Positions 14,373-56,197 of a stretch of DNA of 64,000 nucleotides are shown piece after piece (position 1 is the first letter of the stretch; the number at the start of each line of letters is the position of its first letter). This stretch comes from Mobula hypostoma (taxonomy: Eukaryota). The stretch is from the NCBI RefSeq assembly GCF_963921235.1, contig NC_086108.1, positions 65,040,001-65,104,000 on the forward strand, written 5' to 3'. The position numbers and the translations under genes were made by a program. The notes beneath the pieces are model-generated. The model saw only the letters and a program-made list of their open reading frames with translations, did no database searches and had not been told where the DNA came from.

Positions 14373-14431
14373 ACTGTAAAAACATGTCTACCATATACTA
14401 ACATGAGAAAAATGATTCTGCTTTAAATTTT

Positions 14432-14679
14432 CAATCACAAACAAGAGAAAATCTGTAGATGTTGGAAATCCAAGCAACAAACACAAAATGCTGGAGGTAC
14501 TCAGCAGGCAGCATCTACGGAAATGAGTACAGTAGATGTTTCAGACCGAGACACTTCGGCAGGACTGAAGAGTCTGGAGAGTCCTGCCGAAGGATTTCGG
14601 CCCGAAACATTAACTATATTCTTTTCCGTAGATGCTGCCTGGCTTGCTGAGTTTTTCCAGCATTTTGTGTGTGTGTTGC
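14432..14679. mobile_element. Mini Penelope hairpin insertion with two inverted hammerhead-like cores
   Basis: TSD ctgctttaaatttt at 14418-14431 and 14680-14693; arms 14474-14566 and 14580-14679; 42-nt tail at 14432-14473. Confidence 0.88.
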
Positions 14680-14749
14680 CTGCTTTAAATTTTTATTTGT
14701 CTTTAAACCTAGCTTACACATTTACCTCTGCTGTACAGCAGCTTCAATA

Positions 14750-16794
14750 TCAATGTGATCCTTGAGCTTGATGGTTTTTAGCAAGAGTTGAAACATCTGA
14801 TTCAAGTTGTGACAATAAAAGCCTTAAGTCCCCACACATAACAATGTCCAAGCATTTTCTGTTTATTGTGAGTATGTGGTTCTCTGCACTGAAGTCTCTT
14901 TCAACAAGGTAGGAGGATGGAAATGCAGTGAGGAGCAGTTTGGATCTTCTCCAAAGAGCAGGAAACTTCGTATGACAGTATAGCCACATACCACAAAAGC
15001 TGACATTTTTGAAAAGCATTTTTGTTTCTTCATCATTCTGAGTTTTGATAATTTCTTCTTGCAAGCTCTCTTCCTGTTCTTCCACCTTGCAAAGAAATGG
15101 GTTAATTACCCAGTCCGGAATTTCCAGATCGTTCAAATCCTTGAATCCATTCTGAAAATCCTTCTTCAGTGACTGTAGATGTGAGCAGTACTCTTGAAAT
15201 CACCATCAGTGAAAGGGAGTACCATACTTTCTATGCAAGGAAACTGTGAGAACATTCTTCTCCTAATATTTTGTTTATATGTTTCCAAATTTCCAATAAA
15301 AGAGGACATGGCATTTTCTGCCTAGATTAAGTTGAAATTCTCACCTTGCAGTTTCATATTTAGAATGTTCATTTTGTCATGCAGATTGGTTAGGTATGCC
15401 ATATCTCCACGTTAGAAATTCAGTCGTTTCCCAAATTCTTGTCCACTTTGAACAAAAATTCAACCACAGTATCAAAAAGATCAAAGAAATATTTTAAGCA
15501 GCAACCTTTTGCTAGCCCACGCAGTTCAGTGTAAGAAGCAAGCATTCATCATTATCTGTCATAACTGGTGAAATTTTCTGCTATTCAGTGGACGAGCTTT
15601 AGTTTTGTAGATAGAAGTTATTACAAGATTCATGCTTGAAAAAAGTCACTGGCTGAGGTTTTTGGCTGCGAGATGTTGACGATGAATTACACAATGGATT
15701 GCAAACAGACTCAGGAGTTATTTTTTCATAAATGCCACTCAACCAGCATGGCAGCCTATCATGTATAGTGCTCCATCTGTTGCACAAGAAATCATGTTCC
15801 TAGTTGGAATACTTTTGCCCTCAATATACATTTTAAGCTTATCGTAGATTGGTTCTCCATTAATATTTGTTTTTATCTTTTTACAAAAGAGAATCTCTTC
15901 ATAAACGTTTAATAAACCACACATATGCCATTAGCAATGACTCGTAATCTTGCACAGTTAACTCATCCAGTTGTATCCCAAATTTTGTTTCTTGTAGATC
16001 TGTGTATAGCTGATACTCAATGTCTTCACTCATTTCGTCAATACAACGAGCTACAGAGTTATTACTCAGAGGAATTGCTTTTAACATACTGGTATCTATT
16101 TTGAGAACAGTGGTGAGCACTTCTGATACAGCAGGCATTATTAATCTTTCACCAATAGTATGAGATTTTCCACATGTTGCTATCATTTTGGAAATGTTAT
16201 AAGAAGCAATGAGACCACTATCAAGGTTATTTTTAACTTTATTGGCAAAGGACATGAGCATGCAATGCTTTTCAAATTCTTCTTTCATCTTCTGGAACCT
16301 TTACAGGTTCTCTTTTACAGAAGTGTTCCTGCAATCTTGATAGTTTTGTGACTTCATTAGGCAGTACAGTATTTGCAAATAAGACACGTGGGGTGTCACT
16401 GATCTGATAGGAACAAAATAAATCCATATTCCAGGTATGTAACATTGTATTGACACACTTTCTGTAGTTTTTGTTTCTTAGCAGGATTAGCATTCAAGGC
16501 TTCACCACCTTCAGACTCATAGAGATCACACCGTACATATTTATCCATCATTAATAGGGCTAAATTAAAATAAAAAATTAAATCAAACTGGGAATGCCTA
16601 TCGAATGTTGATGATAGCAATGAGTTGACATGATTGGTCGGTCAGGTCTCGTGCCTCAAGTTAGAGTACCGCTTACCGCCCCTCCCAGAATCTTGAACAA
16701 CCTCCAACGACTTCTATTTCCTTAATGCCTCCTTAGGACACATACCGTACCCCCCACAGGGGGGGGTGATACTGCCCCCCCTTGGGAACCACTG
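14750..16794 (-). mobile_element. hAT (Buster/Charlie, ZBED8/SCAND3-like) DNA transposon with frameshifted transposase
   Basis: ORF pieces QYNVTYLEYGF (BED region), ASYNIS..HTIGERLIMPA, IPLSNNSVARCI, FGIQLDE, CATDGA and FPSSYLVERDFSA..GDLRL..QGSH*. 5' TIR CAGTGGTTCCCAA ends at 16794, next to gtctattc; I did not see the 3' TIR. Confidence 0.92.
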
Positions 16795-17254
16795 GTCTAT
16801 TCCTTCAATCTTTTCTTGTACTCCTGCATTTCTTGTCCTTAAAGCACTCTGCAGTTTCATTTTGAAGAACACTGCTGAATCTATATCCTTCAATCAGTCT
16901 GGTACTACGTTCCAAGTTCTTCCCAATGTAGCATTGAAAAGTTATCCTCATCTTGCCTCTGGCACAAGCTTTTTCCCCAGCCTTCATCCTTTGGTTCTTC
17001 AGCTTCTTGAAACAACTTTACTTAATTTAGCTGAACTTTTAAATGTATGTAAAATACCTCCTCTTAAACTCTCTTGCTGTTAAGAGAATATCTGCTGCTT
17101 CTCCACTGTATAATGTAACATCCTTGAAAACATTCTGGTCCATCTATAGGTTCCTGAAACTTCAGGGTCCATCTTAAAGTGAGGCACCTAAATTTGATAT
17201 TATGGAAGAAAAAAAAGAGATGTATGAATTAGTAATGTTTATTGGCAACAAAAG

Positions 17255-18450
17255 CGGTGGCTCGGCAGTCAATAGTGGTGCTGCTGCCTTAAACTTCTAT
17301 TAGTTCTGTACTGATCTTCGATGCTGTGTATGAAATTTGCATATTCACCCTCGTCTCTGCGATTTTCCCTGGCACACTTAGGCTACGTCCACAGTAGACC
17401 GGATAAATCCGTAACCGAAGCTTTTTCTCTTCGCTTTGACCCTCTGTCCAGACTGAAGTGGCCTTTTCCTCCCCCGAAAATTGAGCTTTTCTAAAACACT
17501 CTCCAGAGTGTTTAAATCTGAAAATGCCGGTTGGCCATTGTAGTGTGTACGGGGTAACCAGCTAATTTTAAAAACACTGTCATGACGTGCCAGAACAAAT
17601 GGTGGCGGCAGCGAGGCATTTCATTGTTTTCTTGAACACAACCTCCAACACCACAGCAACAATATCTGACAATAGATGTTCAACAGCCTAATGTAACATT
17701 GTAAAGAAATACAAGACAACTCTGATGCAGACATGTTTTATACGTTTAGCAAGGTGCTCTATTAATGTATTGCTTGTGCAAACACTTAATAGATGCAATT
17801 GTCACTTTTGCCCAGTAACTCGTTTTATTGTACATGTTAAATACAGCAAAATAGTACACAAAATCATGACAAAAGTAAAGGCAAACAAATAAGGTAACAG
17901 CAAATTTCACTTTTGCCCAGTAACAAGCCTTATTGCACTTAGTTGTAGCTGTCGTCCATTTCATCAGTGAAGAGACTATGGCTGTAGGAAATGTTTCTGG
18001 AGAAACGCACACCAAGTCTTTCGTTTGGCAATTTCCTTTTAAGTTTTTCTAGTCTATAACTGGACAAATGTGCGCCAAGTATACCGTTTCCTCTTCGCTT
18101 GTTTTCTGTGTGTCCTGCGCATGCCCAGTAGGAGGAGATTTGCCCAAATACCCGTTTTAATGTGGACAGAGGTATTTTCAAAAATGCCTGGTGTGGATGC
18201 CTATCGTTTTTACGCAAAACCGGCATTTTCAAAATCATTTGGTCTAGTGTGGATGTAGCCTGATTTCCTCACACATCCCAAAGTCGGTTGCTGAGTTAAT
18301 TAACCACTGTAAATTGTTCCTCATGTATGTGACTGGTGGGTGGAGTTATGGGCATTTGAAAGAACATGTACCTGGAGGAATGGAATTGATGGGACTGGTC
18401 TGACAGCCAGCATAGTTTGTGTGCTAAATGACCTCATCCTATGTTGTAAG
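17255..18450 (+). mobile_element. Decayed V-SINE interrupted by a Harbinger MITE
   Basis: tttgcatattc...ttttccctgg before 17381 continues as tttcctcacacatcccaaag...ttaattaaccactgtaaattg after 18260. Confidence 0.65.
17381..18260. mobile_element. PIF/Harbinger non-autonomous element (MITE)
   Basis: TIRs ggctacgtccacagtagacc and ggtctagtgtggatgtagcc (18/20 match); 3-bp flanks tta and tga; subterminal tccac/gaaaa repeats; no coding capacity. Confidence 0.85.
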
Positions 18451-18554
18451 GAAATATAATATTCTTAGTATATTAGTAGTTTATCCTTAGTGATTAGTTG
18501 ACCACCTTACTAGAATACAACTTTTACTTCACCACTAAAGCTGATGGCATGAAT

Positions 18555-19447
18555 TATCTTCATCTTCAGAAGTTTTCGGATGACTCTGCCATAGTTGGAT
18601 GCATCAGCAAGGGAGATGAGGCTGAGTACAGGGCTACTGTAGGAAACTTTGTCACATGGTGTGAGCAGAATTATCTGCAGCTTAATGTGAAAAAGACTAA
18701 GGAGCTGGTGGTAGACCTGAGGAGAGCTAAGGTACCGGTGACCCCTGTTTCCATCCAGGGGGTCAGTGTGGACATGATGAAGGATTACAAATACCTGGGG
18801 ATACGAATTGACAATAAACTGGGCTGGTTAAAGAACACTGAGGCTGTCTACAAGAAGGGTCAGAGCCGTCTCTATTTCCTGAGGAGACTGAGGTCCTTTA
18901 ACATCTGTTGGACGATGCTGAGGATGTTCTACGAGTCTGTGGTGGCTAGTGCTATCATGTTTGCTGTTGTGTGCTGGGGTAGCAGGCTGAAGGTAGCAGA
19001 CACCAACAGAATCAACAAACTTATTCTTAAGGCCAGTGATGTTGTGGGGATGGAACTGGACTCTCTCATGGTGGTGTCTGAAAAGGGGATGCTGTCTAAG
19101 TTGCATGCCATCTTGGTCAATGTCTCCCATCCACTACATAATGTACTGGGTGGGCACAGGAGTACATTCAGCCAGAGACTCATTCCACCGAGATGCCGCA
19201 CAGAGCGTCATAGGAAGTCATTCCTGCCTGTGGCCATCAAACTTTACAACTCCTCCCTTGGAGGGTCAGACACCCTGTGCCGATAGGCTGGTCCTGGACT
19301 TATTTCATAATTTATTGGCATAATTTACATATTACTATTTAACTATTTATGGTTCTATGACTATTTATTATTTATGGTGCAACTGCAACGAAAACCAATT
19401 TCCCCCTGAGATCAATAAAGTATGACTATGACTATGACTATGACTAT
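18555..19447 (+). mobile_element. Young 5'-truncated Rex1/Babar LINE
   Basis: Uninterrupted RT C-terminus HLQKFSDDSAIVG...LQLNVKKTKELVVD..YKYLG..QSRLYFLRRL..RKSFLPVAIKLYN; aataaag followed by a (tatgac)4 tail. Confidence 0.92.
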
Positions 19448-19524
19448 GGATGAAACTGACTGGCATTTGGGCTGTTATGTTTCAGTATCTTAATGCAAAG
19501 AAGGAAAAACTGCCTATGTTTAAG

Positions 19525-19690
19525 ACAAGCTTGGATAGATTTTTGCATTGTAGGGGAATTAAAGGTTATGGGGAAAAGGCAGGTAGGTGGAGATGAGTCC
19601 ATGGCCAGATCGGACATGATCTTATTGAATGGCAGAGCAGGCTCGATGGGCCAGATGGTCTACTCCTGCTACTATTTCTTAGGTTCTTAT
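19525..19690 (+). mobile_element. CR1 3' end
   Basis: gaatggcagagcaggctcgatgggccagatggtctactcctgct...ttcttatgtt is a typical CR1 3'UTR. Confidence 0.75.
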
Positions 19691-19969
19691 GTTGTAAATC
19701 CAAATTAAGCAGGAAATGCTAGAAATGTCAAAAGGTCAAGCAGTGTCTGTGAAGCGAAAAAGACAGTATTAATATTTAAGGTTGATTTTTTTTTGTTAGA
19801 TATCCTTGTTGGACAAGAAATAACATAATTCAACAGTAATTGAAAAGCAAAATAAACAGTCCTGAGAATTAATTCACCAATATTTCCAGCATTTTCCACT
19901 TTTATTTACATTGTTATGAATTGTTTTTCATCCCTCTCTTCATTGGAATCCTGTATTATAAATCTCCAA

Positions 19970-20176
19970 CAACAACACATAAAAATTGCTGGTGAACGCA
20001 GCAGGCCAGGCAGCATCTATAGGAAGAGGTACAGTCGACGTTTTGGGCCGAGACCCTTTGTCAGGATTGTCGTTGTGCCTATTCCTATAGATGCTGCCTG
20101 GCCTGCTGCGTTCACCAGCAATTTTTATGTGTGTTGCTTGAAATTCCAGCATCTGCAGATTTCCTCGTGTTTGCAT
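19970..20176. mobile_element. Mini Penelope hairpin insertion
   Basis: TSD ttataaatctccaa at 19956-19969 and 20177-20190; arms about 19973-20025 and 20082-20136; mutated hammerhead on the - strand in the loop; 40-nt tail. Confidence 0.9.
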
Positions 20177-21529
20177 TTATAAATCTCCAAACTGCTTTTT
20201 TGCTCAAATCGTGGTCTTCAACTTTCATTATAGGTTTCACTTTTCAAAATGTAAAGATTATTGACTTTTGTTTAATATTGAATAACATAAGAATTGTGTT
20301 CAATTCACTATGAACTTTTTGTCTTGATGAATTAACTTAGACAGAAATGGCCAGGATTCTACAAGAGTTCCAATAGAAGTAAGTAGTGTAATGTAACTAT
20401 CATCTCATAATAATGGGATAAGTATTGCCAGTTTGCTGGTAACAACCATGGAGTAGGAAGAACTATGTGTTGTATACAAAGAAGAGGGCAAACTATCAAG
20501 AGATCAATCTATTGCAGCAGATGTAGGTACTTTGATCACACAAACAGCAACACACAATGAAGCTGAGATTCAAGAGGGAAGTTCTGATTTTTAGGGTACT
20601 TATTGTTTCATGTTTTCTCTCAGGGGTAGTCATTCATTTATTATTACATAATGTCACCACTGCTATGAATGTTGTGTTTGAGGTAACACTGCAGGATAGC
20701 ATCCCTATCTATTGTAGCAAATAAGATTTAACTGATGTTTTGGTTTGTTCCAAGTTGACCTACATCATTATCAGCAGGAACTACCTCTTGTAGCTTGAGA
20801 GGGAGCCCTGTTCTCAATGGCTGATTCTCCTAGATTACAGAGCATTATTGATTGTCACCTTCTGTGTATTGCCAACAATCCTTTGGCTTACTTTCAAGAA
20901 TTATTACCTGAGAAACATGTAAACAGAGTACGTTATCAGCACAAGCCAAATAACTCACAGATAAAACATTTGAGAAGACGGTTTCTCTCTTCTGATACAC
21001 AGTTTTGAATAATGATAGTCAGTGGATGAATGGACTGAGTAACCTCTTTCACCGCTAATCATTTTGACACAATGCCACATAATATTGCCATTGTTATTTG
21101 TAAAGGAACTAATTAAGAAGCAGTTCAATGGTCACTAAGTTAATATGCTTTAGGAGATCTTTCATTTCAGAAAAGGAGAAATGCTTGAGTGTCTCATTGT
21201 TTCATTCATTCTGAGGTCTCTGCATTAAATAGGCACTTTCATATATTCTTTTGCCCAGATTTATACCTTCTGAAATCTTATTAGTATTACTGTGTTCTTC
21301 ACTGTATGCACTGCTTATGTCAAGTATATTATTCTCTTGGTTGATGAATGTTGTTTTCTCACCAGTGTTTAGATGACAGACTGGAAGACATATTTGCAAG
21401 TGAAATAATTTCATAGAAGTGGCTTGTGATTCTTAATGGCCTGTGATTGTACCTTATTCCTATGTTTGCCATTTTTGTGTTACATTCTTTTCTTAGCTTT
21501 GAAGGATATACTAAATTACACATTCAAAT

Positions 21530-22530
21530 AGTCATAGAGTTGGCCTTCAGCCACTATGTCCATTCTGACACTTTTCACCATCGACACTAACTCTATGTGT
21601 TTGCATTAGGTCCATATCCTTCTAAACCTTGTTTATTTAAGTACTTGTCTAAATGTATCTAAAATGTTGTGATTCTGTCTGTCTCTATCACCTCCACTTG
21701 TGTTGGGTTCCAGATATTAACCACTCTCTGTATAAAAAAAATAGAAACTGTCTCCTCAAATCCCCTTTAAAGTTCTTCCTCTCAAATTAAACCTATCCCT
21801 CTTACTTTCAATGTACAACATGTGAAAAAGTGTCTGATGACCTACCCTATCTGCATGTTTTGAAATTTAATATAACTCTGTCAGGTCACCCTCAGTCTAT
21901 TTTGCTGTCAGGAAAAACAAACCCAACTTATCCAGTCTCTCCCCATTACTGAAGTCTTTCAATTCATGCAACATCCTAGTGAAATTAACAATCTGCTTCA
22001 GGAACTCAATAGGTCAAGCAATATTTGTGGGTAGGAAAAGGGGATTTCAGGTTAAAAACCTGAATCAAGACTTCTCCAGCAGATTGCTGTTGCTCCAGAT
22101 TGCAGCATCTGTAGTGTTTTGTGTCTCCAGCATCCTAAAGAATTTCCTCTGCATTCTTTGCAGCACAACCACACTCTTCCTAGAGTGTAGCAAACAAAAC
22201 TCCACACAGTACTACAATCTAACTACAGAATATCAGAACTCTTATATTCTACGTCCTGCTGTATGAAGACTACCATTTCATATACCTTCTTCACCACCCT
22301 ATGCATCAGCATTGACACTAACCACGGTCTAACCATAGAACACCACAACTCTTATATTCTATGTTGTGATGTATGAAGACTACCATTTCATATACCTCCT
22401 TTACCAACCTATGTATCTGTGCTGCCACGTTTAGGTAAATATGGACTTGAACTCCAAGGTCCCTCATTCATCAACATTCCTTTAAACCCTATCTTTGATT
22501 ATATATATCTTATCTGTTTTTGACTTCCTG
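21530..22530 (-). mobile_element. Old CR1 3' fragment containing a decayed PLE hairpin (about 21990-22130) and a 110-bp tandem duplication
   Basis: atagtcatagag tail and ctcctcaaatcccctttaaa...cctctcaaattaaacctat CR1 pattern. Confidence 0.7.
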
Positions 22531-24353
22531 CATATTGTTCCTGCAATGTCAATTGAAAATGCATAGTTGCCTCAGAAGCCTCATCCCCTCTCTATATTTG
22601 CGAACTATTGTTAAGATTTTTATTGATGCAATTTCTGTAGAGCCAGAGTTTGAGCCACGAATTTGAGAACAAATTGTTTGTACAAATTGCCATCAGTAGA
22701 GAGTGTTTGTTTATTTATGTAGCCATAGATAGAAATACCTCTGAAAGACTGTTTATTGAAAAGTTTTGATGGTCCTTGAGAAGCTGGCATGAGTCATGCC
22801 TTAAGTAACTGCCATCCATGCATTGCCTTGGGTACCTGTCAAAGACAGGAGACTCCAGGATTTTAACCCAGTGGTGATTAAAAAAACAGCAATTATATTT
22901 TCATGTTACTTTACATATAGTTTATGTGAATACTTGCAAGTGATGAAATATTTTATTCCATTGGATGCACTGTATAAATTCAAGGTATTGTTATGTTGGT
23001 GTTCCCATGCACCTGCTGTCATTGGCATTCTGGGAGTTCAAGGTTGCAGGTTTATAAAATTGCAGATGCTGCCAATGAAATATTGGTGAGTTGGTGCTGT
23101 TCATCTTGTGGATGAGGTATGCTATAACTCAATCTACAAGTAGTGGGGCAATGAAATGTTTTGTGGTGGTGAACCAGTGTGCAAGAAGCAGGATTGAGGG
23201 GGAAGTGTAATTGAGACATTTCTCACTACCCTTTCTCCTCTCTGCAATGAAAACATACTTTTCTCTCACTTTTCCATTTCTAGTGAAAAATCCTTAACCT
23301 GAAACATTGAAATCTCTATCCATTAATACAGCTTGGTCACTCACGTTTCGTGCTTTTGACCTGGATCCTGCTGAGTTTCTTGAGTGTCAGATTTGCAGTC
23401 TTCGTGCAGAGAATAGTTCATTACACTCTTAAAGTGATGGAAAACTTTCCATGGTTCTATTGATGAGTGGGAGTTGGGCATCAGTAAAGGTTGTATCTTT
23501 TATGGTTATTTGCAGCCATGCAGAGTGTAAGCTACGCAGAGAGTTTAACCTTCAAGCTTTCTTAACAGCTCCGAGACATAATCATTTAGGCAGGCATCTT
23601 CAAGCTCTGAGAGGAAGACAGCTGAATCCTTTTGAGCATTTGTGGGCCCTCCCTTTCAAATATAGCAGTGCATGCCATGACAATATGAGATTATTGTGTA
23701 CATCACTATTTTGGAAAGTTCTGAAGTAACACTAAGACATGACCTGATTAATGTGATCCCTCACTAAAAGGTATTTAATAGGTTACATTTTACTGTATTA
23801 CAGTTATGTGCACCTGATTGGAGATTTTTCCTGCTGATGAGGATATCAAATTTCACAGTCAGCATTTTGTGATAAATAAATACAATTTCAACTGTACTTA
23901 AAGTAGTCAAAAGGTGCATTTTTTTCATTTTTTAGTTTATGATTTTAAGAAACCTGAGTCTGTGGGGTTGGCTCCAGATTTTCTCATGTTTTGCGTGACC
24001 ATTCCCTTTGGTATTTCATCCAGAATATTATTATATGATATGTTTAGTGAAAGTAAAGATGTTACTAAAATGGTAGTGCTACAATGTATAAAATCTGTTA
24101 TTAATATTAGTCTATCAAATATATGCCCCTTGCCTGACCAGACAAAAATAATACAATATGTTCAGTTGAGGTGTGTGGAGGATCTGATTAAAAAAAAAAG
24201 CTTTTGTTTAATTTTATGAATGCCACAGAATTGTGCCTGGTTTGAGAAAAAGACTTTGTTGTTTAGCTTACTATCACATTTCTTTCACACCGATGCTGCC
24301 TCCATTAACTATAATCATTGCTTACAAATCCTTTTCTTTAGCTGTGGTTTTGA

Positions 24354-24587
<234 letters not shown>

Positions 24588-27192: not shown

Positions 27193-27284
27193 CCTATTCG
27201 ACACCCAGCACCTCCCCTGCAAACCGATTCGTGAGTGTTGGACCACGGGATCCCAGCTTTGTAAATATCCCTCAACAGCCACAG
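27193..27284 (+). CDS. NFIA: NFIA coding exon (exon 10 equivalent)
   Basis: Acceptor tcccttcccttcacAG|CC and donor CAG|GTGGGC; 92 nt. Joins in frame to the previous exon, giving (T)YSTPSTSPANRFVSVGPRDPSFVNIPQQPQ, which matches NFIA just before the terminal SWYLG. Confidence 0.96.
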
Positions 27285-41100: not shown

Positions 41101-41677
41101 CCAATAACAATAAGAAATTTCTGCTTGTCCACCATTGCTTTCAACTAGTCAGATAGTTGAGAGTCACCATAGAATAGACATCTGTTGGCTTGCGACATCC
41201 TAGCCTTAAAATTTATCTGCACTCAAGTGGTAAATAAAAAATGTCTGTTTATTCTGAGTCCAATTAACAGCAAAATCGGCAAAAGAGGCCACTCAGCACC
41301 TAGATCCAGTTACTCTGCTCAGTTAGGTCATGATGGGATTATGTATTCCATTTACCTCTCTTAGATCCAGAATCCTTTTCACCTTGGAAAAAAAAATTCC
41401 AAGTCCCAGTTTTGAAAGTTAGTTCACCTTAAGAGCAAGTGGAAGTTCCATTTCTAGTATCATATGTATGAAAAAATATTCTTTGATATCACATCTGATT
41501 GGCCAAGCTCGAATCTGAAGATTATCCCACCCTCCATTATGTGTTTCCCCAATAAGTTAATAGATTCCTTTTAAAAACGCAAACACGAGGAATTCTGCAG
41601 ATGCTGGAAATTCAAGCAACACACATCAAAGTTGCTGGTGAACGCAGCAGGCCAGGCAGCATCTCTAGGAAGAGGTA

Positions 41678-41714
41678 CAGTCGACGTTTTGGGCCGAGAC
41701 CCTTCATCAGGACT
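41678..41714 (-). ncRNA. Minimal hammerhead ribozyme with one core mutation (GAAA to AAAA)
   Basis: - strand reads AGTC CTGATGA A GGG TCTCGG CCC AAAA CG TC GACT. Confidence 0.7.
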
Positions 41715-41842
41715 AACTGAAAGAAGAGCTAGTAAGAGATTTGAAAGTGGGAGGGGGAGATCCAAAATGATAGGAGAAGACAGGAGGGGGAGGGATGGAG
41801 CCAAGAGCTGGACAGGTGATTGGCAAAAGGGATATGAGAGGA

Positions 41843-41995
41843 ACACTCACAACACGCTGGAGGAACTCAGCAGGTCGGGCAGCATCCGTGGAAAAGCTCG
41901 GTCGACATTTCCACGGATGCTGCCCAACCTGCTGAGTTCCTCCAGCGTGTTGTGAGTGTTGCTTTGACCCCAACATCTGCAGATTATTTTGTGTT
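41843..41995. mobile_element. 153-bp mini Penelope hairpin nested inside the PLE
   Basis: Perfect 15-bp TSD agggatatgagagga at 41828-41842 and 41996-42010; arms 41842-41894 and 41908-41960; 35-nt tail. Confidence 0.92.
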
Positions 41996-44499
41996 AGGGA
42001 TATGAGAGGATCATGGGACAGGAGGCCCAGGGAGAAAGAAAAGCGGGGGGTCCCAGAGGATGGGCAAGGGGTATAGTGAGAGGGACAGAGGGAGAAAAAG
42101 GAGAGAGAGAAAAAGAATGTGTGTATATAAATAAATAACGGATGGGGTACAAGGGGGAGGTGGGGCATTAACGGAAGTTTGAAAAGTGAATGTTCATGCC
42201 ATCAGATTGGAGGCTACCCAGACGGAATATAAGGTGTTGTTCCTCCAACCTGAGTGTTGCTTCATCTTTACAGTAGAGGAGGCTGTGGATAGACATATCA
42301 GAATGGGAATGGGATGTGGAATTAAAATGTGTGGCCACTGGGAGATCCTGCTTTCTCTGGCGGACAGAGCATAAGTGTTCAGCGAAACGATCTCCCAGTC
42401 TGCGTCGGGTCTCGCCAATATATAGAAGGCCACATCGGGAGCACCGGATGCAGTATATCACCCCAGCCGACTCACAGTTGAAGTGTCGCCTCACCTGGAA
42501 GGACTGTCTGGGACCCTGAATGGTGGTAAGGGAGGAAGTGTAAGGGCATGTGTAGCACTTGTTCCGCTTACAAGGATAGGTGCCAGGAGGGAGATCAGTG
42601 GGGAGGGATGGGGGGACGAATGGACAAGGGAGTCGTGTAGGGAGCGATCCCTGCGGAAAGCAGAGAGGGAGGGGGGAGGGAAAGACGTGCTTAGTGGTGG
42701 GATCCCGTTGGAGGTGGCAGAAGTTACGGAGAATAACATGTTGGACCTGGAGGCTGCTGGGGTGGTAGGTGAGGACCAGGGGAACCCTATTCCTAATGGG
42801 CTAGCGGGAGGATGGAGTGAGAGCAGATGTGCGTGAAATGGGGGAGATGCGTTTGAGAGCAGAGTTGATGGTGGAGGAAGGGAAGCCCCTTTCTTTAAAA
42901 AAGGAGGACATCTCCCTCGTCCTGGAATGAAAAGTCTCATCCTGAGAGCAGATGTGGCGGAGACGGAGGAATTGCGAGAAGGGGTTGGCATTTTTGCAAG
43001 AGACAGGGTGAGAAGAGGAATAGTCCAGATAGCTGTGAAAGTTAGTAGGCTTAGAGTAGACATCAGTAGATAAGCTGTCTCCAGAGATAGAGACAGGAAG
43101 ATCTAGAAGGAGGAGGGAGGTGTCGGAAATGGACCAGGTAAACTTGAGGGCAGGGTGAAAGTTGGAGGCAAAGTTAATGAAGTCAACGAGCTCAGCATGC
43201 AGAGCCAATGCAGTTGTCGATGTAGCGAAGGAAAAGTGGGGGACAGATACCAGAATAGTTCTGGAACATAGATTGTTCCACAAAGCCAACAAAAAGGCAG
43301 GCATAACTAGGACCCATACGGGTGCCCATAGCTACACCTTTAGTTTGGAGGAAGTGGGAGGAGCCAAAGGAGAAATTATTAAGAGTAAGGACTAATTCCG
43401 CTAGACGGAGCAGAGTGGTGGTAGAGGGGAACTGGTTAGGTCTGGTTAGAAGTTTCTTTCTGTCTACCTTATCCTCTATACTGAAGTAAATACAGACCTA
43501 ATCTATACTATCTACTATCTTAATTTACTTATTGTCATAGTGATGTACATACACTGTACACCTTCCAAGAGCAATTTAAACTCTCTGTGCTATGGTGCCC
43601 AAATCATTTAGCTGTAGTGTATCATCCCTCCCTTTGTGCCCATGATGCCATGATGGTAGATTAATTACCAGCAGCACCTTGCTGAGTGTGGCTAGCTGTG
43701 GTACTAAGTTTGTATATGGAGCTAATCCATTTTTCACCACTCAACCATTATCAGATGTACCTAGTTTCAAGCCAACCTAATTGTATTATCCAGACTGAGG
43801 GAAGAATTATTACTTCTATAAGATGACAGATATACATACATCATGTGGCTAAATGAAATCATGGCACTAATTATATTTGTAGAAATGTTCCATTACTCCA
43901 AAGTCATAGATTTCAACCACGTGCCTAACAAGGAGCAATGTTAAGTGACACAGAAGGATTTGGTAACAGCCAATAATATTGATCAAGTAGTAGATGAAGA
44001 TGTAAATAAGGCAAAGAATGTTTTTATTCATTTGACTATGCATAATTGTGAGGCAGAACAGCTTAGGGTTTTAGTTTAGAAATTTGTAGCACTGCATTTA
44101 GTTCAGAATTTTCTCAAAGCAATTGTAAACCATAAATAAACTATGAAAATACTATTTTGGAATGTTTTTATTTTCTAAGATGTGCCCAGATGCTCTTCTG
44201 TCTGAAGGTTTATTTTCTCTAAGGCTGGTTGCGGCTGCTTCTTTGCAGATAATGAAGATATTTCTTGACATAAATAGATTACCTGGCTTTATTTCAACAG
44301 TTTTGTCTTTGCATTACTCATAATTCCAGAATGTGTAAATATATGTGATGCACTTTTAAAGGTACAAGTAGTCTTATACGTTAGTTTTAATTCCTACAAT
44401 CTGTGATTTATTCCGTTGGTTTCTAATGGTTGTAAATCAACAACAGCAATCAGATGACACCTTGGCTTTAATTTTACCTTTAATTATACAAAGTAGCGT

Positions 44500-46429: not shown

Positions 46430-47870
46430 AGTGGCAACACAGTTAAACAGCTTATTGATTGGTACTGAGGGTCTGATAGTGTTGAATGCTGAACGTGGAC
46501 AATAACATAAGCCATTGCTATTTCGAAGGCCAAGTGGAGAGCCAATGATATTACATCTGCTGGAGGCCTATTGCAAATTGCAGTGGGTCCAGGTCCTTTG
46601 CTTAGGCAGGAGTTGATTCTGGGAAGACCAATTTCTGAAAGCACTTCACAATAGATGTGAGTGCAACTCAGTGATATAGTTAAGGCAGCTCACCCTGCTG
46701 TCCTTGAGCACTGGTATGATTTGTCTTGCTTTTGAAGCAGGTGGGAACCTTCAACTGCAATAGTGAGAGATTGAAGGTGTCCTTGAACACTCCTGCTAGT
46801 TAGTTGGCACTCAATTTCAGTGTCCTACTGGGTACACCATCAGGGCCTGACACCTTGCGAGGGTTCACTTTCCTGAAAGATGTTCTGACATTGACCTCTG
46901 AGACAGAAATCATAGGTTCACCAGATGCTGCAGAGATTTGCACAGGTGTAGTTTTATTCTCCCTTTCAAAATGTGCTTAAATGCATTGAGCTCATCTGGA
47001 GTGAAGCATCACAGCCATTCATGATGTTAGGTTTTGCCTTGTAATGGCCTGCAAACCCTGCCAGAACTGAAGTGTATCCGATTCTGCCTCTGACTTCAAT
47101 TGGAGGTGTTTTTGCTCTTAAAATATCCTTCTATTGGATGTACCTGGACTTCTTGTATAGTTCTCCATCACTGGTCTTGAATGGCACAGATCTACGAGGG
47201 GTGATTGATAAGTTTGTGGCCTAAGGTAGAAGGAGATGAGTTATACAGCTCTCGTTACATGCATATGCAGCTCAACTCTTTGAGTGATTGTGCAGAAAGT
47301 TTGAAGTTAATAACTCATCGGTTAATAACTCATCAGGGGTGATTGATAAGTTCGTGGCCTAAGGTAGAAAGAGTTGAGTTATTAACCAAACTTTCTGCAT
47401 AATCGCTCAAAGAGTTGAACTGCATGTGCATGTAACGAGAGCTATATAACTCATCTCCTTCTACCTTAGGTCACGAACTTATCAATCACCCCTGCTGTGG
47501 AGGCTTTCTGGAGGTTCAAGATCCGTATGCTCCACGACCGCTGGACTAAGTGTGTAAATGTAGGAGGGGACTATGTTGAAAAATAAATGTGCTAGGTTTT
47601 CTAAAATTGACTCTTTCTACCTTAGGCCATGAACTTATCAATCACCCCTCGTATTCCTCAGCCAAGTATGAAATTTCTGGTTCATCCATGGCTTTTGGTT
47701 GGGTATTTGTGGTATGTCCTCAAAGGCACACACTCATCCGCACAGGTTTTGATGAAGTTGGTGACAACTGTGGTGTATTCATTCAGGTTCAAATATGTAT
47801 CCCTGAGTATTGTCCAGTCCACCAACTCAGATTAGTTTTGTAAGTGCTCCTCCACTTCCTTTGACCATAC
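46430..47870 (-). mobile_element. Rex1-like LINE fragment interrupted by a mariner fold-back element
   Basis: Colinear with 58300-59290 (for example gatttgcacaggtgtagttttattctccctt); RINSCLSK motif. Confidence 0.82.
47195..47651. mobile_element. Mariner-derived fold-back element (copy 2; 4 TIR copies)
   Basis: TA|cgaggggtgattgataag ... cttatcaatcacccctcg|TA; contains the IRMLHDRWTKCVNVGGDYVEK* codons. Confidence 0.92.
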
Positions 47871-47889
47871 CTCGAAGAAAGCTTTTGCC

Positions 47890-48180
47890 ATGTGGCTTCA
47901 TCAGTTGTAACGCTGAGAAAAAAAGTTGGGACATCATATTAGAGTTTTACAAAAGATTAATTAGACTGCACTGGAGCATTGTATACAGTTCTGGTCACTA
48001 GGAAAAATGAAATGATGTGATTATGCAATAGAGGATACAGAAAAAATCCACAAGAATTTTGGCTGGACTGGAGGGATTGAATTCTAAGGGGATTGGATGG
48101 CCTGGGACTACTTCCTCTGGAGTTAAGGAGACTGAGAAGTGCTGTTACTATTACTATTAGGGGCATAGATAGGGTAGTAG
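47890..48180 (+). mobile_element. Decayed CR1 fragment
   Basis: KSWDIILEFYKRLIRLH.. CR1 C-terminal motif. Confidence 0.65.
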
Positions 48181-48209
48181 TAGTTATACTCTCCCCCCTC
48201 CCCCCAGTT

Positions 48210-48912
48210 CAAATTCAAGTTCAATTGTAGTTTTCATTCAACCATACATGAATATAGCCAAACGAATCAGCATTCTTCTGGGGCTAAAGTGTGAAACACA
48301 TTACCAACAGCACACAGAACACCACACATAGCACAAATAGCAAATATGGTTACGATTTCAGAAAAAGACACAGTCACAAAGAGAAAGAAAATAATAATAT
48401 AGCCCAAGTTCCTGTGTGGCATGATTAGATTGATGCTAAGTTTTCCTGGCCCAGCTTGTTCTTTCTTTGAGCAAACACTGGAGGGCAGCACCATCTTAGT
48501 ATCTCCTCCCCTGGGCGACTGCAATAAATGACACCACAGCCTAGGCCTAGGCCTCACTACAACTGAGGCAATGCAGCTCCTCGGCGATTAGTCTCACCAA
48601 AGAACCAGTGGACCAGACTTGCAGTGTATTTTGCCAATGTCAAAGAGGGTCTTGCGATCACAATAAAAACATCCAAGACAGTCACTCACACTGCACACCT
48701 CAAAAGATGCACAAGTTCAGGTGACAACACAACAATGCAGTAAATCCAGCTCCATCACTTTCGAGCAACTTGCTGATGGGGTAGTCCTGCAGTATTGGGT
48801 TTTCTTACTATTCAGTAATGACTTGAGATCATAAAAAAAATGTACAAGACAAACAAATACACTTTTGATTGGACCTGGAGTGGCTGCTGCTTCCAAGCAT
48901 GCTGCCATCTTA
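48210..48912 (-). mobile_element. Probable non-autonomous LINE derivative
   Basis: - strand begins aagatggcagc (LINE 5' motif) and ends in a ttgaacttgaattt tail; no ORF. Confidence 0.45.
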
Positions 48913-49229
48913 GCAGAAGCCAGGAAACATATATGGAGGGGGATAAACAGTTGACATTTCAGTTTGCATAAAACATCAACTTGCCTGACTTGCTGAGTTT
49001 CTCCAGCATTTTGTGTGTTGCTCAAGATTTTCCGCAGCTTCCGAACCTGTTGCATTCGTTAAGGGGACATTATTTTGACATAGTTCTTGGAAGAAGTTAT
49101 CAGCTGGGGAGGACAGAGGAGCGTAGAAGAAATGAGAGCTCATGGATTTACTAGTTTTGCATAGAAGAGGATTTGCTATCTAGTAGGATAAAGAGCTCAT
49201 TTGTATGTTGGCATCCTACGAGGGAGGGA

Positions 49230-51620
49230 CTTCTACCTTTAGGGATCAGTGTTGGAACTGCAACTGTTCACAATATGTATTGACCATTGAGAGGAAGGAG
49301 CTGAATATACAAAGTAGGTACGGGTGTGCAGTGGGGAAAATGCAGACAGTTTACAGAGGGATCGATTAACTTATTGGGCAAAATATTGGCAGATGGAGTA
49401 TGATGTGAGAAAATGTGGAGCAAGAATGACAAAGTACATTGTTGTTTAAATGGAGAAGAATTGATGAATGCTGAAGCATCAAGGCATTTTCGAGCCCAAG
49501 TACATGGAACACAGAGAGCTATAGGAAGTAATTAGAAAGGTTAATAAAATGCTGTGTTTTTATTTCAAGGTGATTATAGCACAAAAGCAGGGAAATTGTG
49601 TGCTACAGCATACAAGGCACTAGAGTACGGGGAGGAGTTTTGGTTTCCTTATTTTTGGAAAGATGCATTAACGTTAAAGGCAATTCAGAGAGGGATCTCT
49701 AGGATGATCCAGGGTATGAAGGAAGCATCTTATTAGGAAAAATTGAGCAGATAGGGCCTGAAATCATTGTTGTTTAGAGAAATGAGAGATGACCTTACTG
49801 AAACATATGAGATTCGTTGGGTGTTTTACAGTGTTAAGATGAAGTAAATATTTCCCTAGGATACAGGACCACAGATCATAATCAGAATAAAGGGGAGTCC
49901 ATGGAGAATGAGATGAGGAAGAATTTCTTCTCTGAGAGTCTTTGAAATTTCTTACTTCAGAAATCCGAAGAGGCTAAATCCATGAATGTAATCGAAGCTA
50001 AGATAGATATTAAAATAAATAAAATAATCACATTATGGGGAAAGAGCAGGGCAATGAGGAAAATTGGATAAGCTATGATCTTCCTGAATGGCAACGTAAG
50101 CTATTGTTGTTTTCAGTTAGGGTACGGTGGTACACAACCATGTCTGATCTTGTATTTCATCACTGTTCTCTTGCCCTGTCTCAATACTCCTTGATTCCTC
50201 TAATATGCAGGTTTATCTGTCTCAGACTTGAAAGCAATCAATGACTGAGTGCCCACAGGCCTCTGGGTAGATTACTCGGAAGATTTACCACCCTTGAATA
50301 ATTTTTTTTCTCATTCCAATCCTTTGTTGCATTGTCTCTGTAGCAAGCATATCCTTTTTAAGTAAGAGGATCAAAATTATGCAAACTACTTCAAGTGTGG
50401 TCTCACCAAGGCCGATATAATTGAAGTGAGATATATTTACTTTTATACTTAAATGACCTTGCAGCAAAGGCCAACATACCATTTGTCTGCCTAGCTGCCT
50501 GCTGCAACTGCCTATCAGCTTTCAGTGACTTGTTTACAAGGACATAAGGTGCCTTAGCAGATCAACATTACTCAGTCTTTTACAGCTTAAGACACACTCA
50601 GTTTTAAGTGTATTTTGTATATTGAAGTAGATAACCTCACAGTTTTTTTCCATATTGTACTACATCTGTTATGTTGTTGCCCCTTATCCAGCTTGCCAAT
50701 ATCTGCTTGAGGGCTCTTTGCATCTTCATCACCACTCATATTCCCATAAAGTACAATGTCTTCAGCAGAATTTAAAATGTTACATTGGTCCCCTCAGCCA
50801 ATTTGTTGATGCAAACTATAAATGGTTTGAGCACGAGTACCGATCCCGGTGGTACCCACCACTCAGAGCCTGCCAACCTGAGAAGAACATAGTTTCCTAT
50901 TCTTTGTTTTCATTCTATTTAAAAAATTAACAGTACTTTCTAGGACTTTGCTGTCGATTCCACATGCTTTAACTTTGTTCAACACCTTCCTCTTTGATAT
51001 TTAATCTAAAGCCTTCTGAAAATCTATGTTTATTTTATTCTTGTTTAGAGATAACAGCGCGGGATAGGCCCTTCTGGCCCTATCAAGGTGCACCACCCAG
51101 CAGCCCACTGATTTAACCCTAGCCTAATCACAGGATGGTTTACAATGACCTATTAACCTACTAACCAGTATGACTTTGGACTGTGGAGGAAACCCACGCA
51201 TACACAGGAAGGAACATACCAACTTGATTAGAGAGGACGCCAGAACTGAACTCCAAACTCCGATAATAGCTGTAATAGCATCAAGCTAACCACTGCACTA
51301 TGCGTGTCGTATCCACTGGCTCCCCTCTGAGATATATCCTCAAGGAATTCCACAGGATGCCTCAAACGTGATTCTTTTTGTAATCCATATTGGCATATTC
51401 TACCCAATTGTTTTTTTTATAAATTGTAAGGCTAATAGAGCAATATTGCTTGTTTTCTCTTGCTATCCTTTCTTAATTAGCAGGGTCACATTTGCCAATG
51501 CCCAGCAAGTAAAGAGAAACACTAGAACTGGCACTCTCTTCAAAACTTGCAAGAGCTTCAGAACCTTTCTTCTTTTCCAGATGCTTTTTTAATTCTTCCC
51601 AAGTAGGTCTCGGTCAACTT
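49230..51620. mobile_element. Two old CR1 fragments tail-to-tail (+ about 49230-50095; - about 50130-51620), the second interrupted by a SINE
   Basis: QFWFPY-like EFWFPYFWKDALTLKAIQRGISRMI (+); LKKDMLATETMQQR (-). Confidence 0.7.
51027..51305 (-). mobile_element. V-SINE
   Basis: Reverse of 63045-63333: tttagagataacagc tail, ttacaatgacctattaacctactaacc...tttggactgtggaggaaacc V-domain, gaactgaactccaaactc B-box region. Confidence 0.8.
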
Positions 51621-52282
51621 AAGTAATCTTGCATAGAAGATCCTGATGGTGGAGCAGGACCACAAGCTCTTGCAAGAACAACTGGAATAACAAAGACAAC
51701 TTAATTATCCTGTTTGTCCATCTTCTCAGCCACATACCTCCTCCATTGCCAGTTAACACTAGACCCAAATGAACAAAGCAGATCCCCGCCAAGACCACTG
51801 GGATGGTAGAGGAACTCCATCACAGCGAGCCCTTACGGTCACCATGGTCCATAGTAGTCTGCAACTGAATGCAGCCATGGCGCCTGTGGTGCCTGTCCAT
51901 CCACACATAACTGAGTAGAAGCAGGGAGCAAAATAAACTGACCCAGGAAGGATTCAAGAGGGGGATCTATGCTTTCTTCAAAATGGGAAATTTTGGGAAT
52001 TCATTGCAGTTGTTGGCAATGCTTCACGTCTTAAAGAATATTTTTCCACCACTTTGTCCCTACTTTGTTGTAAAATAACTCAAATTCACATATCCACTTG
52101 GAGTTGGGTAGGAAGATAGTCCAGGCCTAAAGTCTTCACCTTGGTTCAGTTCCTTGATCTGTAAACATTTAAGAACATCAAAAAATTATTTTTATTTCTC
52201 ATTCTACTTGAACAGAAACAATGAGTTGCCCACTACACTGCCCAGCAACAAAGAAATATTAAAACATATCCAGGAGTAGATC

Positions 52283-52953
52283 AAACATGAGAATATCTGC
52301 AGATGCTGGAAATCCAAAGCAACACACACAAAATACTGGAGGTCTCAGCAGGCCAGGTAGCATCTGTGAACAAGAGTGAACTGCCGATTTTTTGGGTCGA
52401 GACTCTTCATCTGGAAAGGAAGGGGAGAAGTCAGCATAAGATTGTGGGGGATGTGGTGAAGGAAGTACATGGCAGCAGGTGAAACTGGGGGTGGGGTGAA
52501 GTGTAGAGCTGGGAAGTTGATTGGTGGAAGAGATAAAGGACTGGAGAAGGGAGAATCTGATATAAAGGGACCAAGACCATGGAAGAAAGGGAAGTGGGAG
52601 GAGTACCAAAGGGAGGTGTTGGACAGGTAAGGAGATAAGATGAGAGAAGGAAACAGGAATGGGGAATAGTGAAGGATAAGGGTTGGGGGAGGGGGTGGTC
52701 AATTACCAGAAGTTTGAGAAATCGATGTTCATGTCATCAGGTTGTAGGCTACTCAGACAGAATATAAGGGTTGCTCCTTCAATCTGAGTGTGGCCTTATC
52801 ATGGCAATAGAAGAGGCCATGGACTGACAGGTCAGAATGGGAATGGGAAGTAGACTTGAAATGGGTGGCCACCGGGAAATCTCGCTTTTAGTGGCGGACA
52901 GAACAAAGGTGTTTGATAAAGCGGTCTCCTAATTTACGTCAGGTTTCACCAAT
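52283..52953 (-). mobile_element. Older Penelope 3' fragment (GIY-YIG C-half plus terminus with degenerate hammerhead)
   Basis: Colinear with 41577-42420; - strand ccagatgaagagtctcgacccaaaaaatcggc. Confidence 0.85.
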
Positions 52954-54050
52954 ACTTTTACAGTATATACCCCTGCACTATGGCTTAGAGCATCATCTGA
53001 GAAAAGGGGAAAATCAGCAGTAGCTGCTTAATTTTCCTTTCATTTGTTTAAATGAAAAGATACTGGATGTGTCATTTGTGTTCCCATTTGTCAGATTGTT
53101 TTCAGTTTTCTGAACCTCACTCTCATGCCCCGGATAAATTCTATGTCCTAGTTTTGCTGAAAACATTTTGCCCAACGTGATGAACAATTCCAGGGACTTG
53201 AATTGATTGTAATTGAGACCCAAGCATATCGGCACCATAGTTACTCACTTGGATGTTTCAATAATTTAAAATTTCATTTATGAGTTTATTTGAGAGCCAG
53301 AACTTCTGCACTCTATTAGTATTCAGTCTTTTCACTTCTAAACATTTGGGTTTAAACTGATGAGAGTTTGAACAGACCTCTAGAACTTTGACTGATGAAC
53401 AATATAAACTGTTGTTTTATTCAGCATAGCAATACAAGATCAGTATTCACGATTAAAACAGTGTTTTATCAACATATTCTATGTGTCTGCTTTGCATTAC
53501 ATGAGCTGAATACCTTTGAAATGACACACACACGTGCAGGCAGTTATTAAAAGTTTAGTCAGCACTTTTGGCGAGGATGAGATTACATTGCTTTCTGAAT
53601 AGCTGTAGAAGAACTAAATCTGCATCTTAAACTACAAAATTTCCACTCACGTTTCACCTTGAATACTGAGGAAGGGCAGCCAGAAGATTTTTAAGATGGG
53701 ATTCCTGAAAGATCCTTTGCTGTAATGTGATGGTGTAATATAGTACAATTTGAAAAGGAAGCTAAGATTGTTAAAGGAGTATTCCTGATTTGAAAGATGC
53801 TATTAGTGAATTGCTTCCAAAAGAACAATTTTCTGAAGTGCATACATAATTGTTTTCCATGGAGACAATTTGGAACCATGATAAATATAACCTTATTTTC
53901 ATTTACTTTTTAGTCAAAACCACACAGATACTTTAACTTTGTTACTGCATATAAATCATATAATATTCACATATATATTTTCTCATGCTGATGGAATGTA
54001 TGCTATTCTTTAAAAGGTTTGACAAGAGTCCAGTACCATCAGTATGCTTA

Positions 54051-55953
54051 AAATAATCTGCAGATGCTGTTGCCAAAGGAACACTCACAATGCACTGGAG
54101 GAACTCAGCAGGTCAGTCAGCATCAGTTGAAAAGTTTCGTCGACGTTTCGGGCCGAAACCCTTTGTCAGGACTGAAGGAAGAACTTTGGGGAGGGTTTGA
54201 AGAATGCTGGTAGCTGAAAAAAACAGTAATTTGAAAGACAAAGGGTTGGGGGAGGGGATGCAGGGAGGTGATTGGCAGGAGAACAATGCGCAGTAGTAGA
54301 AGGAGGCGGAACTATGAGGGTAGTGATGTGAAATAGGGATAGAGGAAGGGAGGGGGAGGGAAATACTGGAAGTTGGAGAATTCTATGTTCATACCAAGGG
54401 GCTGGAGACTACCTAGACGGTATATGAGGTGTTGCTCCTCCAACCTGAGTTTAGCATCATGGCAGTAGAGGAGGCCATGTATGGACATATCTGAATGGGA
54501 ATGGGAAGCAGAGTTGAAGTGGGTGGCTACCGGGAGATCCTGTCTGTTGTGGCAGACGGATTGGAGGTGCTCAACGAAGTGGTCCCCCAATCTGCGTCGG
54601 GTTTCACCGATGTAGAGGAGGCCGCACCGGGAGCACCGGATGCAATAGATGACCCCAACAGTTTCGCAAGTGAAGTGTTGCCTCACCTGGAAGGACTGTT
54701 TGGGGCCCTGAATGGTGGCAAGAGAGGAGGTGTAGGGACAGGTGTAGCGCTAATGCTTACAGGGATAAGTGCCGGGTGGGAGATCAATGGGGATGGACGT
54801 GCGGATAAGTGAGTCGCGGAGGGATCGATCCCTGCGGAAAGCGGAGAGGGGTGGAGAGGGAAAGATGTGCTTAGTGGTGGGATCCTGTTGAAGGTGGCGG
54901 AAGTTGCGGAGGATAATGTGCTGGATCCGGAGGCTGGTGGGGTGGTAGGTGAGGACAAGGGGAACTCTGTCCTTGTTGTGCTGGCGGGAAGATGGGGTGA
55001 GGGCCGAAGTGCGGGAAATGGAGGAGATGCGGGTGAGGGCATCATTGATCACCGTAGAAGGGAAACCATGATCCTTAAAGAAAGAGAACATTTGAGATGT
55101 CCTGGAACGGAAAGCCTCACCCTGAGAGTAGATGCGGCGGAGACGGAGGAACTGGGAATAGGGAATGGCATTTTTGCATGTGGCGGTATAGTCAAGGTAG
55201 TTATGAGAGTCAGTGGGCTTGTAGAAGATGTCAGTGGACAGTCTGTCTCCAGAGATGGAGACCGAGACATCGAGAAAGGGGAGAGAGGGTCAGAGATAGA
55301 CCAAGTGAATTTGAGGGCTAGGTGGAAGTTTGAAGTAAAGTCGATGAAATTGACGAGCTCAGCATGGGCGCAGGAAGCAGCACCAATGTAGTTGTCAATG
55401 TATCGAAGGAAAAGTTGGGGAGCAGTACCAGAATAGGTTTGGAGCACAGACTGTTCCACACAACCAACGAAGAGGCAGGCGTAGCTGGGTCCCATGCGAG
55501 TTCCCATAGCTACACCCTTATTCTGAAGAAAGTGGGAAGGGCCAAAAGAGAAGTTATTAAGTGTGAGAACCAGTTCCGCCTACCGGAGGAGGGTAGTGGT
55601 GGTGGGGAACTGGTGAGGTCTATTATCCAGGAGGTAGCAGAGGGCTTTGAGGCCTTCTTGATGGGGAATGGAGGTGTATAAGGATTGGACATCTATAGTA
55701 AAAATGTAGCGGTATAAGGATTCCGCCTCCTTCAACTACTGCGCATTGTTCTCCTGCCAATCACCTCCCTGCTTCCCCTCTCCCACCCCTTTGTCTTTCA
55801 AGTTACTGTTTTTTTTCAACTACCAGCATTCTTCAAGCCCTCCCCAAAGTTCTTCCTTCAGTCCTGATGAAGGGTTTCAGCCCGAAACGTCGACTAATCT
55901 TTTCAACTGATGCTGACTGAGCTGCTGAGGTCCTCCAGCGCATTGTGAGTGTT
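54051..55953 (-). mobile_element. Neptune-type Penelope element with about 234-bp inverted terminal repeats and a 15-bp TSD
   Basis: TSD ccatcagt(a/g)tgctta at 54036-54050 and 55954-55968; arms 54078-54311 and 55721-55955; RT MGTRMGPSYACLFVG..FLRYIDNYIG; GIY-YIG ORF 54312..54686. Confidence 0.95.
55860..55895 (+). ncRNA. Minimal type I hammerhead ribozyme with intact core
   Basis: AGTC (stem I) CTGATGA A GGG-TTTCAG-CCC (stem II) GAAA CG TC^ GACT (stem I'). Palindromic ACGT replaces stem III; predicted cleavage after C55891. Confidence 0.8.
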
Positions 55954-56197
55954 CCATCAGTGTGCTTATTTGTATTCTTTTTAAGAGTAGACAGCTAATG
56001 TTATTATAATATTTTATGAATCCTTGGTATCCCTGATTTCAATTACCTATGTACTAAACCTTACAGGTGCTTTTTGCATCTATATCGGGTCCAAAATCTT
56101 TATTAGGGTAGTGTGAGATTCATTTAGTCCTCTTTACCCTGTGTAACTTCTATGTTTATTTTCTTTGTTCATGCCGACTTGTTCTTCTGTTCAAAAT

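Follow-up and report, generated by a model that had tools for sequence, protein, structure and literature searches.

We analysed a 64,000-nt stretch of Mobula hypostoma contig NC_086108.1 (the window, to which all locus counts below refer), which holds four insertions built from the 3' terminus of a predicted Neptune-type Penelope-like retroelement (PLE). Each consists of two copies of this terminus placed head to head, with a tail on one side and a target-site duplication (TSD) around the whole. Insertion 1 occupies 14432–14679, insertion 2 19970–20176, insertion 3 41843–41995, and insertion 4 54051–55953; insertion 3 lies inside a further PLE copy, the host PLE. Their parts, including reverse transcriptase (RT) and GIY-YIG endonuclease (EN) coding sequence, are as follows.

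14418–14431, plus strand: left TSD copy of insertion 1, 14 bp, exact; right copy at 14680–14693
14432–14679, no strand assigned: insertion 1, two PLE 3' termini forming a hairpin; tail at 14432–14473 (42 nt, element sense on the minus strand)
19956–19969, plus strand: left TSD copy of insertion 2, 14 bp, exact; right copy at 20177–20190
19970–20070, minus strand: tailless arm of insertion 2, containing a mutated hammerhead
about 20072–20136: tailed, shorter arm of insertion 2; tail at 20137–20176 (40 nt)
41828–41842, plus strand: left TSD copy of insertion 3, 15 bp, exact; right copy at 41996–42010
41843–41995, no strand assigned: insertion 3, hairpin nested in the 3' untranslated region of the host PLE; tail at 41961–41995 (35 nt)
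41565–43453, minus strand: host PLE of insertion 3, 5'-truncated RT-CX4CxxC-GIY-YIG, tailed, with no inverted terminus and no clean long TSD
54036–54050, plus strand: left TSD copy of insertion 4, 15 bp, one mismatch; right copy at 55954–55968
54051–55712, minus strand: tailed arm of insertion 4, with tail (54051–54079), 3' terminus, and a broken RT-GIY-YIG open reading frame (ORF) cut off inside the RT domain
55713–55720, plus strand: junction filler of insertion 4, within an 11-nt copy of 55676–55686 (templated insertion)
55721–55953, plus strand: inverted tailless arm of insertion 4, about 233 nt, with an intact minimal hammerhead core from 55864

The TSDs were exact in insertions 1–3 and carried one mismatch in insertion 4. 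Among random boundary pairs, an exact flanking repeat longer than 8 nt was obtained in 0/600 and a one-mismatch repeat of at least 15 nt in 1/300; under a local-alignment null, the scores of insertions 1–3 were reached by 0/3000 and that of insertion 4 by 1/3000. The four boundaries and the TSD lengths of 14, 14, 15, and 15 bp given in an earlier note on this DNA (the original prediction) were therefore recovered far above chance, apart from the mismatch. The regular length that it emphasized is seen in these four copies, which were selected; two old copies point to about 13 and 14–18 bp, and the verified non-inverted insertion has no TSD of this kind.

Identity between the inverted arms was 86%, 97%, 96%, and 94% in insertions 1 to 4, respectively. 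In all four, the tailless arm stopped no more than about 3 nt from a GTGTT motif, the common inversion landmark that had been predicted. The one-sided tails measured 42, 40, 35, and 29 nt; the first three lengths agree with the original prediction, while the 27 nt proposed for insertion 4 becomes 29 nt, with a 2-nt CC overlapping the TSD. Most of the variation in tail length came from the outer end, which lies 21, 18, 13, and 7 nt past a conserved CTRCAG in insertions 1 to 4; hence a sharp inner end and a loose outer one. All four thus carry the inverted, 5'-truncated copy and the one-sided tail of 30–40 nt by which insertions of endonuclease-bearing (EN+) PLEs are recognized.

Empty sites and other copies of the terminus

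Public contigs of four of 23 runs, one from the same species (X1) and three from relatives (X17, X18, and X9), were aligned to 41300–43700. Paralogous host copies in the same species skip 168 nt, equal to 153 + 15, in three of the listed joints (3 contigs each), with near-variant joints skipping 167 nt (16 contigs) and 172 nt (8 contigs), and beyond a loose end at 41842 comes the sequence that follows the right TSD copy. Because these paralogues lack the insertion plus one repeat copy, the 15-bp repeat of insertion 3 is a true duplication, and the predicted TSD was borne out. In all three relatives, one contig joins about 41564 straight to about 43454; the contiguous empty site shows that the host PLE is a recent insertion without a 14–15 bp duplication, its junction leaving space for nothing beyond an imperfect repeat no longer than about 10 bp. 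The 5' filler of the host PLE (43446–43453) could have been copied from an 8-nt match at 43432 or could belong to a short, imperfect TSD.

Nine termini of the window were combined into a profile, which gave 17 matches at 10 loci when searched against the window. Seven are short copies, at 10.5, 14.4, 20.0, 22.0, 41.8, 48.9 (only probable), and 56.2 kb; the remaining loci are one long inverted copy (insertion 4) and two tailed copies without an inverted terminus (41565–43453 and 52281–52960). The mirror-image layout with tail and TSD is therefore not universal, as non-inverted tailed copies occur in the window. The loci beyond the four insertions and the host PLE are listed below.

10455–10700, no strand assigned: older hairpin made from the same terminus, its tail at the right end; TSD not found
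21987–22127, no strand assigned: very old hairpin with a long tailless and a short tailed arm; possible decayed TSD of 14–18 bp (p about 0.06)
48915–49045, no strand assigned: probable decayed hairpin of the same terminus
52281–52960, minus strand: 5'-truncated PLE copy with the end of EN, 3' terminus, and tail; inverted terminus and TSD not found
56193–56313, no strand assigned: old insertion in which a 29-nt tail-only piece is joined to an inverted arm running from hammerhead to landmark

The older short copies number four: the 56 kb copy has a possible 13-bp TSD with one mismatch (56180–56192/56314–56326), another has the possible decayed TSD given above, and two have none detectable. Under the local-alignment null, no TSD was found at the host PLE or at the loci at 10 kb, 49 kb, and 52 kb (p 0.45–0.92).

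Element identity and hammerhead motifs

Insertion 4 gave matches to RVT_1 (E 3.3e-5) and GIY-YIG (E 0.015), both below the Pfam cut-off, and the host PLE matched GIY-YIG above the cut-off (E 2.6e-5). RT shares one ORF with a C-terminal GIY-YIG domain, as expected of EN+ PLEs, though the ORFs are broken and 5'-truncated, and the RT, a CX4CxxC linker, and the GIY-YIG domain with an internal CxxC all lie on the tailed strand. In both translations (insertion 4 and host PLE), this CxxC falls between the VIY and YIG motifs and is followed by two histidines; the published definition of EN+ PLEs includes a CCHH motif whose two cysteines lie between GIY and YIG (PMC8557442). The linker is present in the host PLE and decayed in insertion 4. 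According to the same source, a CX2-5CxxC linker between RT and EN occurs in Neptune and Nematis and is absent in Penelope/Poseidon, and Neptune was preferred to Nematis because a vertebrate survey lists only Neptune and Poseidon among vertebrates. By domains and linker, the four insertions are predicted copies of a Neptune-type PLE, in line with the original assignment.

Arm identity within one insertion was 0.93–0.98, versus 0.71–0.87 between the four insertions. Insertion 2 was 92–95% identical to the host PLE at 41.6 kb, and insertion 3 was 83–87% identical to insertion 4. Summed contig depths, which are not copy numbers, were taken only as a sign of very high abundance. Pattern scans for further copies returned 0 stretches in viral contigs, metagenome contigs, and prokaryotic genomes, and a search for a solved structure of a relative found none.

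All four insertions had originally been described as hammerhead-bearing, a claim that holds for fewer of them. Insertion 3 has neither a CUGAnGA core nor a stem II, the core is mutated in both arms of insertion 1 and in the one core of insertion 2, and the sole intact core among the four is that of one insertion 4 arm at 55864 on the plus strand. A minimal hammerhead in the terminus is thus recognizable at the sequence level; an Rfam search gave no hammerhead match. Hammerhead cleavage was rejected as the cause of the arm ends, since in insertions 1, 2, and 4 the arms extend across the core. All four runs showed a large loose-end peak at 41714, immediately 5' of the hammerhead core, where several tailless arms of the window also stop; the peak may mark a preferred stop or may reflect nothing beyond subfamily divergence, with which it is confounded (agreement 0.37–0.39), and it was left out of the evidence.

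Arm extents, junctions, and the proposed integration route

The relative lengths of the two arms differed between copies. The tailless arm reached further 5' in insertion 2 (profile positions 7–108 versus 44–139 for the tailed arm) and in the 22 kb copy (9–99 versus 82–127), and it was also the longer arm in the 56 kb copy, whose 29-nt tailed piece never gets to the landmark, and in insertion 3 on the simpler of two readings of its junction. In insertion 4, the tailless arm was far shorter than the tailed one, and in insertion 1, the arms were about equal. The simplest reading of the insertion 3 junction is a 4-nt GAAA/TTTC microhomology, and the filler of insertion 4 belongs to an 11-nt local copy from 36 nt away (chance 0.005). 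With templated filler in one and microhomology in the other, these junctions look like products of end repair, presumably of the polymerase-theta type.

The arm extents favour two separately primed complementary DNAs (cDNAs) joined by end repair over a fold-back. Building on the observed anatomy, TSDs, empty sites, arm extents, and filler, we infer two separate cDNAs, a staggered cut, and a repair route, which may be combined in the following way. The RT-GIY-YIG protein would cut both target strands with a stagger of about 14–15 nt, a value derived from the TSDs. One target 3' end would prime a cDNA at a loose outer site within the tail's U-rich end, and from the other a second cDNA would be primed at an inner site, sharply placed about 29–42 nt upstream; each cDNA would stop independently, often near the hammerhead, and end repair would join the two free ends through microhomology or a short templated filler. 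The outcome would be head-to-head arms, a one-sided tail, and a TSD. If the second cDNA were not kept, trimming and joining of the free end would leave a copy that is not inverted and lacks a clean long TSD. Re-priming at a fixed inner site, as originally proposed, fits the tail and has been published for another PLE, while the accompanying 14–15 nt stagger would follow from TSD length. The best explanation overall, to which we assign a probability of about 0.7, is that these are independent, 5'-truncated Neptune-type insertions, from at least four subfamilies of a very abundant PLE, made by two-site priming of a staggered cut.

In a fold-back or self-priming route, a single cDNA or antisense RNA would fold on a short microhomology and copy itself up to the landmark. 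Such self-priming has been proposed (PMC3846280), and it suits insertion 1 and the 10 kb copy with their near-symmetric arms, the high arm identity within insertions, and the microhomology at the insertion 3 junction. However, it predicts that one type of arm always contains the other, whereas the longer arm is the tailless one in insertion 2, the 22 kb copy, and the 56 kb copy but the tailed one in insertion 4; since either arm can be the longer, one fold-back direction cannot yield both patterns, and we regard this route as unlikely. Still less probable is that the hairpins were inserted long and inverted, like insertion 4, and then shrank by deletion at the palindrome centre. Long inverted repeats are prone to deletion, and such shrinkage would account for junction microhomology and for either asymmetry. 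Against it, insertion 3 is already only 153 bp long inside a host PLE that is absent from three relatives, which makes the insertion young, and PLE insertions that arose de novo in Chlamydomonas are, through 5' truncation, a median of 128 bp long (PMC9977147).

The short hairpins might instead be a self-propagating, non-autonomous retroposon, with a transcribed hairpin being recopied and the same loop rebuilt at new sites; if so, a self-copying hairpin would be a MITE-shaped element (miniature inverted-repeat transposable element) moving through RNA. Seven of the ten loci are short, non-autonomous PLE derivatives exist (PMC9977147; 10.64898/2026.07.22.740005), and annealing of the sense arm of a first cDNA to a second cDNA seems mechanistically possible. 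The seven short copies, however, have seven different junctions and belong to several subfamilies (a test of low power), so that no loop junction of the recurring kind was common to them, and insertions 2 and 3 have long relatives in the window (the 41.6 kb host and insertion 4, respectively). In addition, no strand-change joint was present among the 15 best-supported of the 3354 joints from four runs (these 15 reach down to joints of 3 contigs, and the total leaves some joints uncounted), and a dominant recurring hairpin in the host PLE's subfamily is unlikely. Self-propagation is therefore improbable, and we would give equally little weight to the version in which some hairpins of 120–250 bp copy themselves faithfully: twin priming would start one cDNA from the end of the tail and the other from the inner landmark, and the two would anneal along a whole arm and rebuild the same loop at each new site with a fixed stagger of 14–15 nt. 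Of the two hairpin origins originally offered, ultra-truncated products fit the data, and the self-propagating retroposon found no support here. Reading the hairpins as MITEs was rejected, as they have an unpaired tail at one end and their long relatives encode RT and GIY-YIG.

Several points weigh against two-site priming of a staggered cut. Only four TSDs are clean, and these were chosen by eye among 10 loci in one window; the link between TSD and inversion compares four inverted with two non-inverted copies, one of the latter checked against an empty site, and the junction of that host PLE leaves room for the imperfect repeat mentioned above. A tailless arm could also seem longer through later loss of sequence at the centre of the hairpin, and the insertion 3 junction can also be read as arms ending at a palindromic GTCGAC followed by a small deletion. 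In most short copies, both arms stop no more than about 30 nt from the hammerhead, a pattern that free truncation of two cDNAs does not by itself explain; stalling at the hammerhead stems, or annealing between cDNAs through its self-complementary segments, might account for these ends. Finally, the element for which two-site priming was observed in vitro is a Poseidon, not a Neptune (PMC11167929), and a term search of the main text of that paper returned no TSD, twin priming, or stagger.

All tails (for example, 20137–20176 and 41961–41995) keep a CAGCATCTGCAG-like segment, which resembles a splice acceptor and could pair with an upstream AGATGCTG segment. An alignment fold of the tail with this upstream segment of 8–9 nt showed two-sided change in only 1/11 pairs, and single folds of the start-site RNA were no better than shuffles in 5/5 cases (z −1.14 to 1.09).

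Comparison with published elements and neighbouring repeats

The architecture itself is already known, and the finding mainly adds examples. An inverted pseudo-long terminal repeat (pLTR) with a 31-bp tail and TSDs of 8–10 bp is the typical Penelope structure, and an Adineta partial-tandem copy without TSD was joined by microhomology (PMC3846280, Arkhipova et al. 2013); the same layout, with PLE TSDs of variable length, is shown elsewhere (PMC8557442, Craig et al. 2021). The original background on inverted pLTRs and short 3' tails matches this structure. Our insertions resemble canonical EN+ PLE insertions in their 5'-truncated body, adjacent inverted terminus, one-sided tail of 30–40 nt, and TSD. 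They differ from Adineta PLEs in having TSDs of 14–15 bp rather than 8–10 bp (PMC3846280), and from canonical EN+ PLEs in that most copies are only 120–250 bp long; neither a full-length copy nor a direct pLTR pair (partial tandem) occurs in the 64-kb window.

The purified Poseidon protein of Anolis carolinensis cuts and extends both target strands in vitro (PMC11167929, Frangieh et al. 2024). Its RT starts at two internal sites, the tail being the sequence between them, a dimer is predicted, and hammerhead cleavage is not required; according to the same source, PLE integration steps after first-strand synthesis are not yet validated. In the window, arms run through the hammerhead, and the tail would again lie between two start sites. 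The elements belong to different clades, however, and the main text on the Anolis element is silent on TSD length and on the joining of inverted copies; in addition, the targets in the window are not uniformly AT-rich, the TSD of insertion 3 being purine-rich.

Minimal hammerheads are reported in fish Neptune elements, and Schistosoma has hammerhead pairs on opposite strands 100–700 bp apart (PMC4209133). The window elements share the minimal type I motif in the terminus with the fish Neptune PLEs and differ in having one intact core among four insertions. Non-LTR (non-long terminal repeat) retrozymes are tandem PLE derivatives (10.64898/2026.07.22.740005), and the window hairpins are like them in being short, non-coding, and derived from a PLE terminus; retrozymes, however, form head-to-tail tandems with at least two hammerheads, whereas the hairpins are single and head to head with a tail and TSD. 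PMC8969392 and PMC5753468 served as background only. A retrozyme reading was rejected because it needs head-to-tail tandem units and all termini in the window are single or head to head.

In twin priming of LINE-1 (long interspersed nuclear element 1), reportedly described by Ostertag and Kazazian in 2001, both target ends are said to prime cDNA, with microhomology at the junction and the TSD kept. The window insertions would share these features; LINE-1 twin priming is reported to turn round an internal segment and leave the 3' end unduplicated, whereas here both arms copy the same 3' terminus. In the literature covered, which included few subscription papers and left the 2005–2006 PLE reviews outside, we found no TSD peak at 14–15 bp and no twin-priming account for Neptune elements, and the tightness of the TSD may be undocumented. 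The additions made here are small: a tight TSD in four copies, none in the verified non-inverted copy, and arm asymmetries favouring two cDNAs. The insertions offer a natural read-out of PLE integration, and if a 14–15 bp peak tied to inversion and independently truncating arms held genome-wide, the cut stagger would become measurable and two cDNAs would be favoured over self-priming.

Such hairpins risk confusion with MITEs or microRNA precursors and are better annotated as PLE ends. The Rfam family mir-1791 matches the insertion 3 hairpin (41867–41936) with E 9e-06 and 43.3 bits against a gathering score of 75 bits; a mir-1791 identity was rejected, the match being below the gathering score and reflecting the hairpin.

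A second, unrelated family of nested palindromic repeats occurs at 2726–3370, 47194–47655, and 61812–62414, with arms of up to 231 nt that are 94% complementary and copies that are 83–95% alike; it may be a mariner-type MITE. A repeat pair of about 200–240 nt (14170–14372 and 19205–19441, 80% identical) lies a few hundred bases to the left of insertions 1 and 2. Many dispersed repeat fragments that are 70–80% alike, at 2200–8900, 46500–47900, 51000–51300, and 56500–63300, are probably old LINE pieces.

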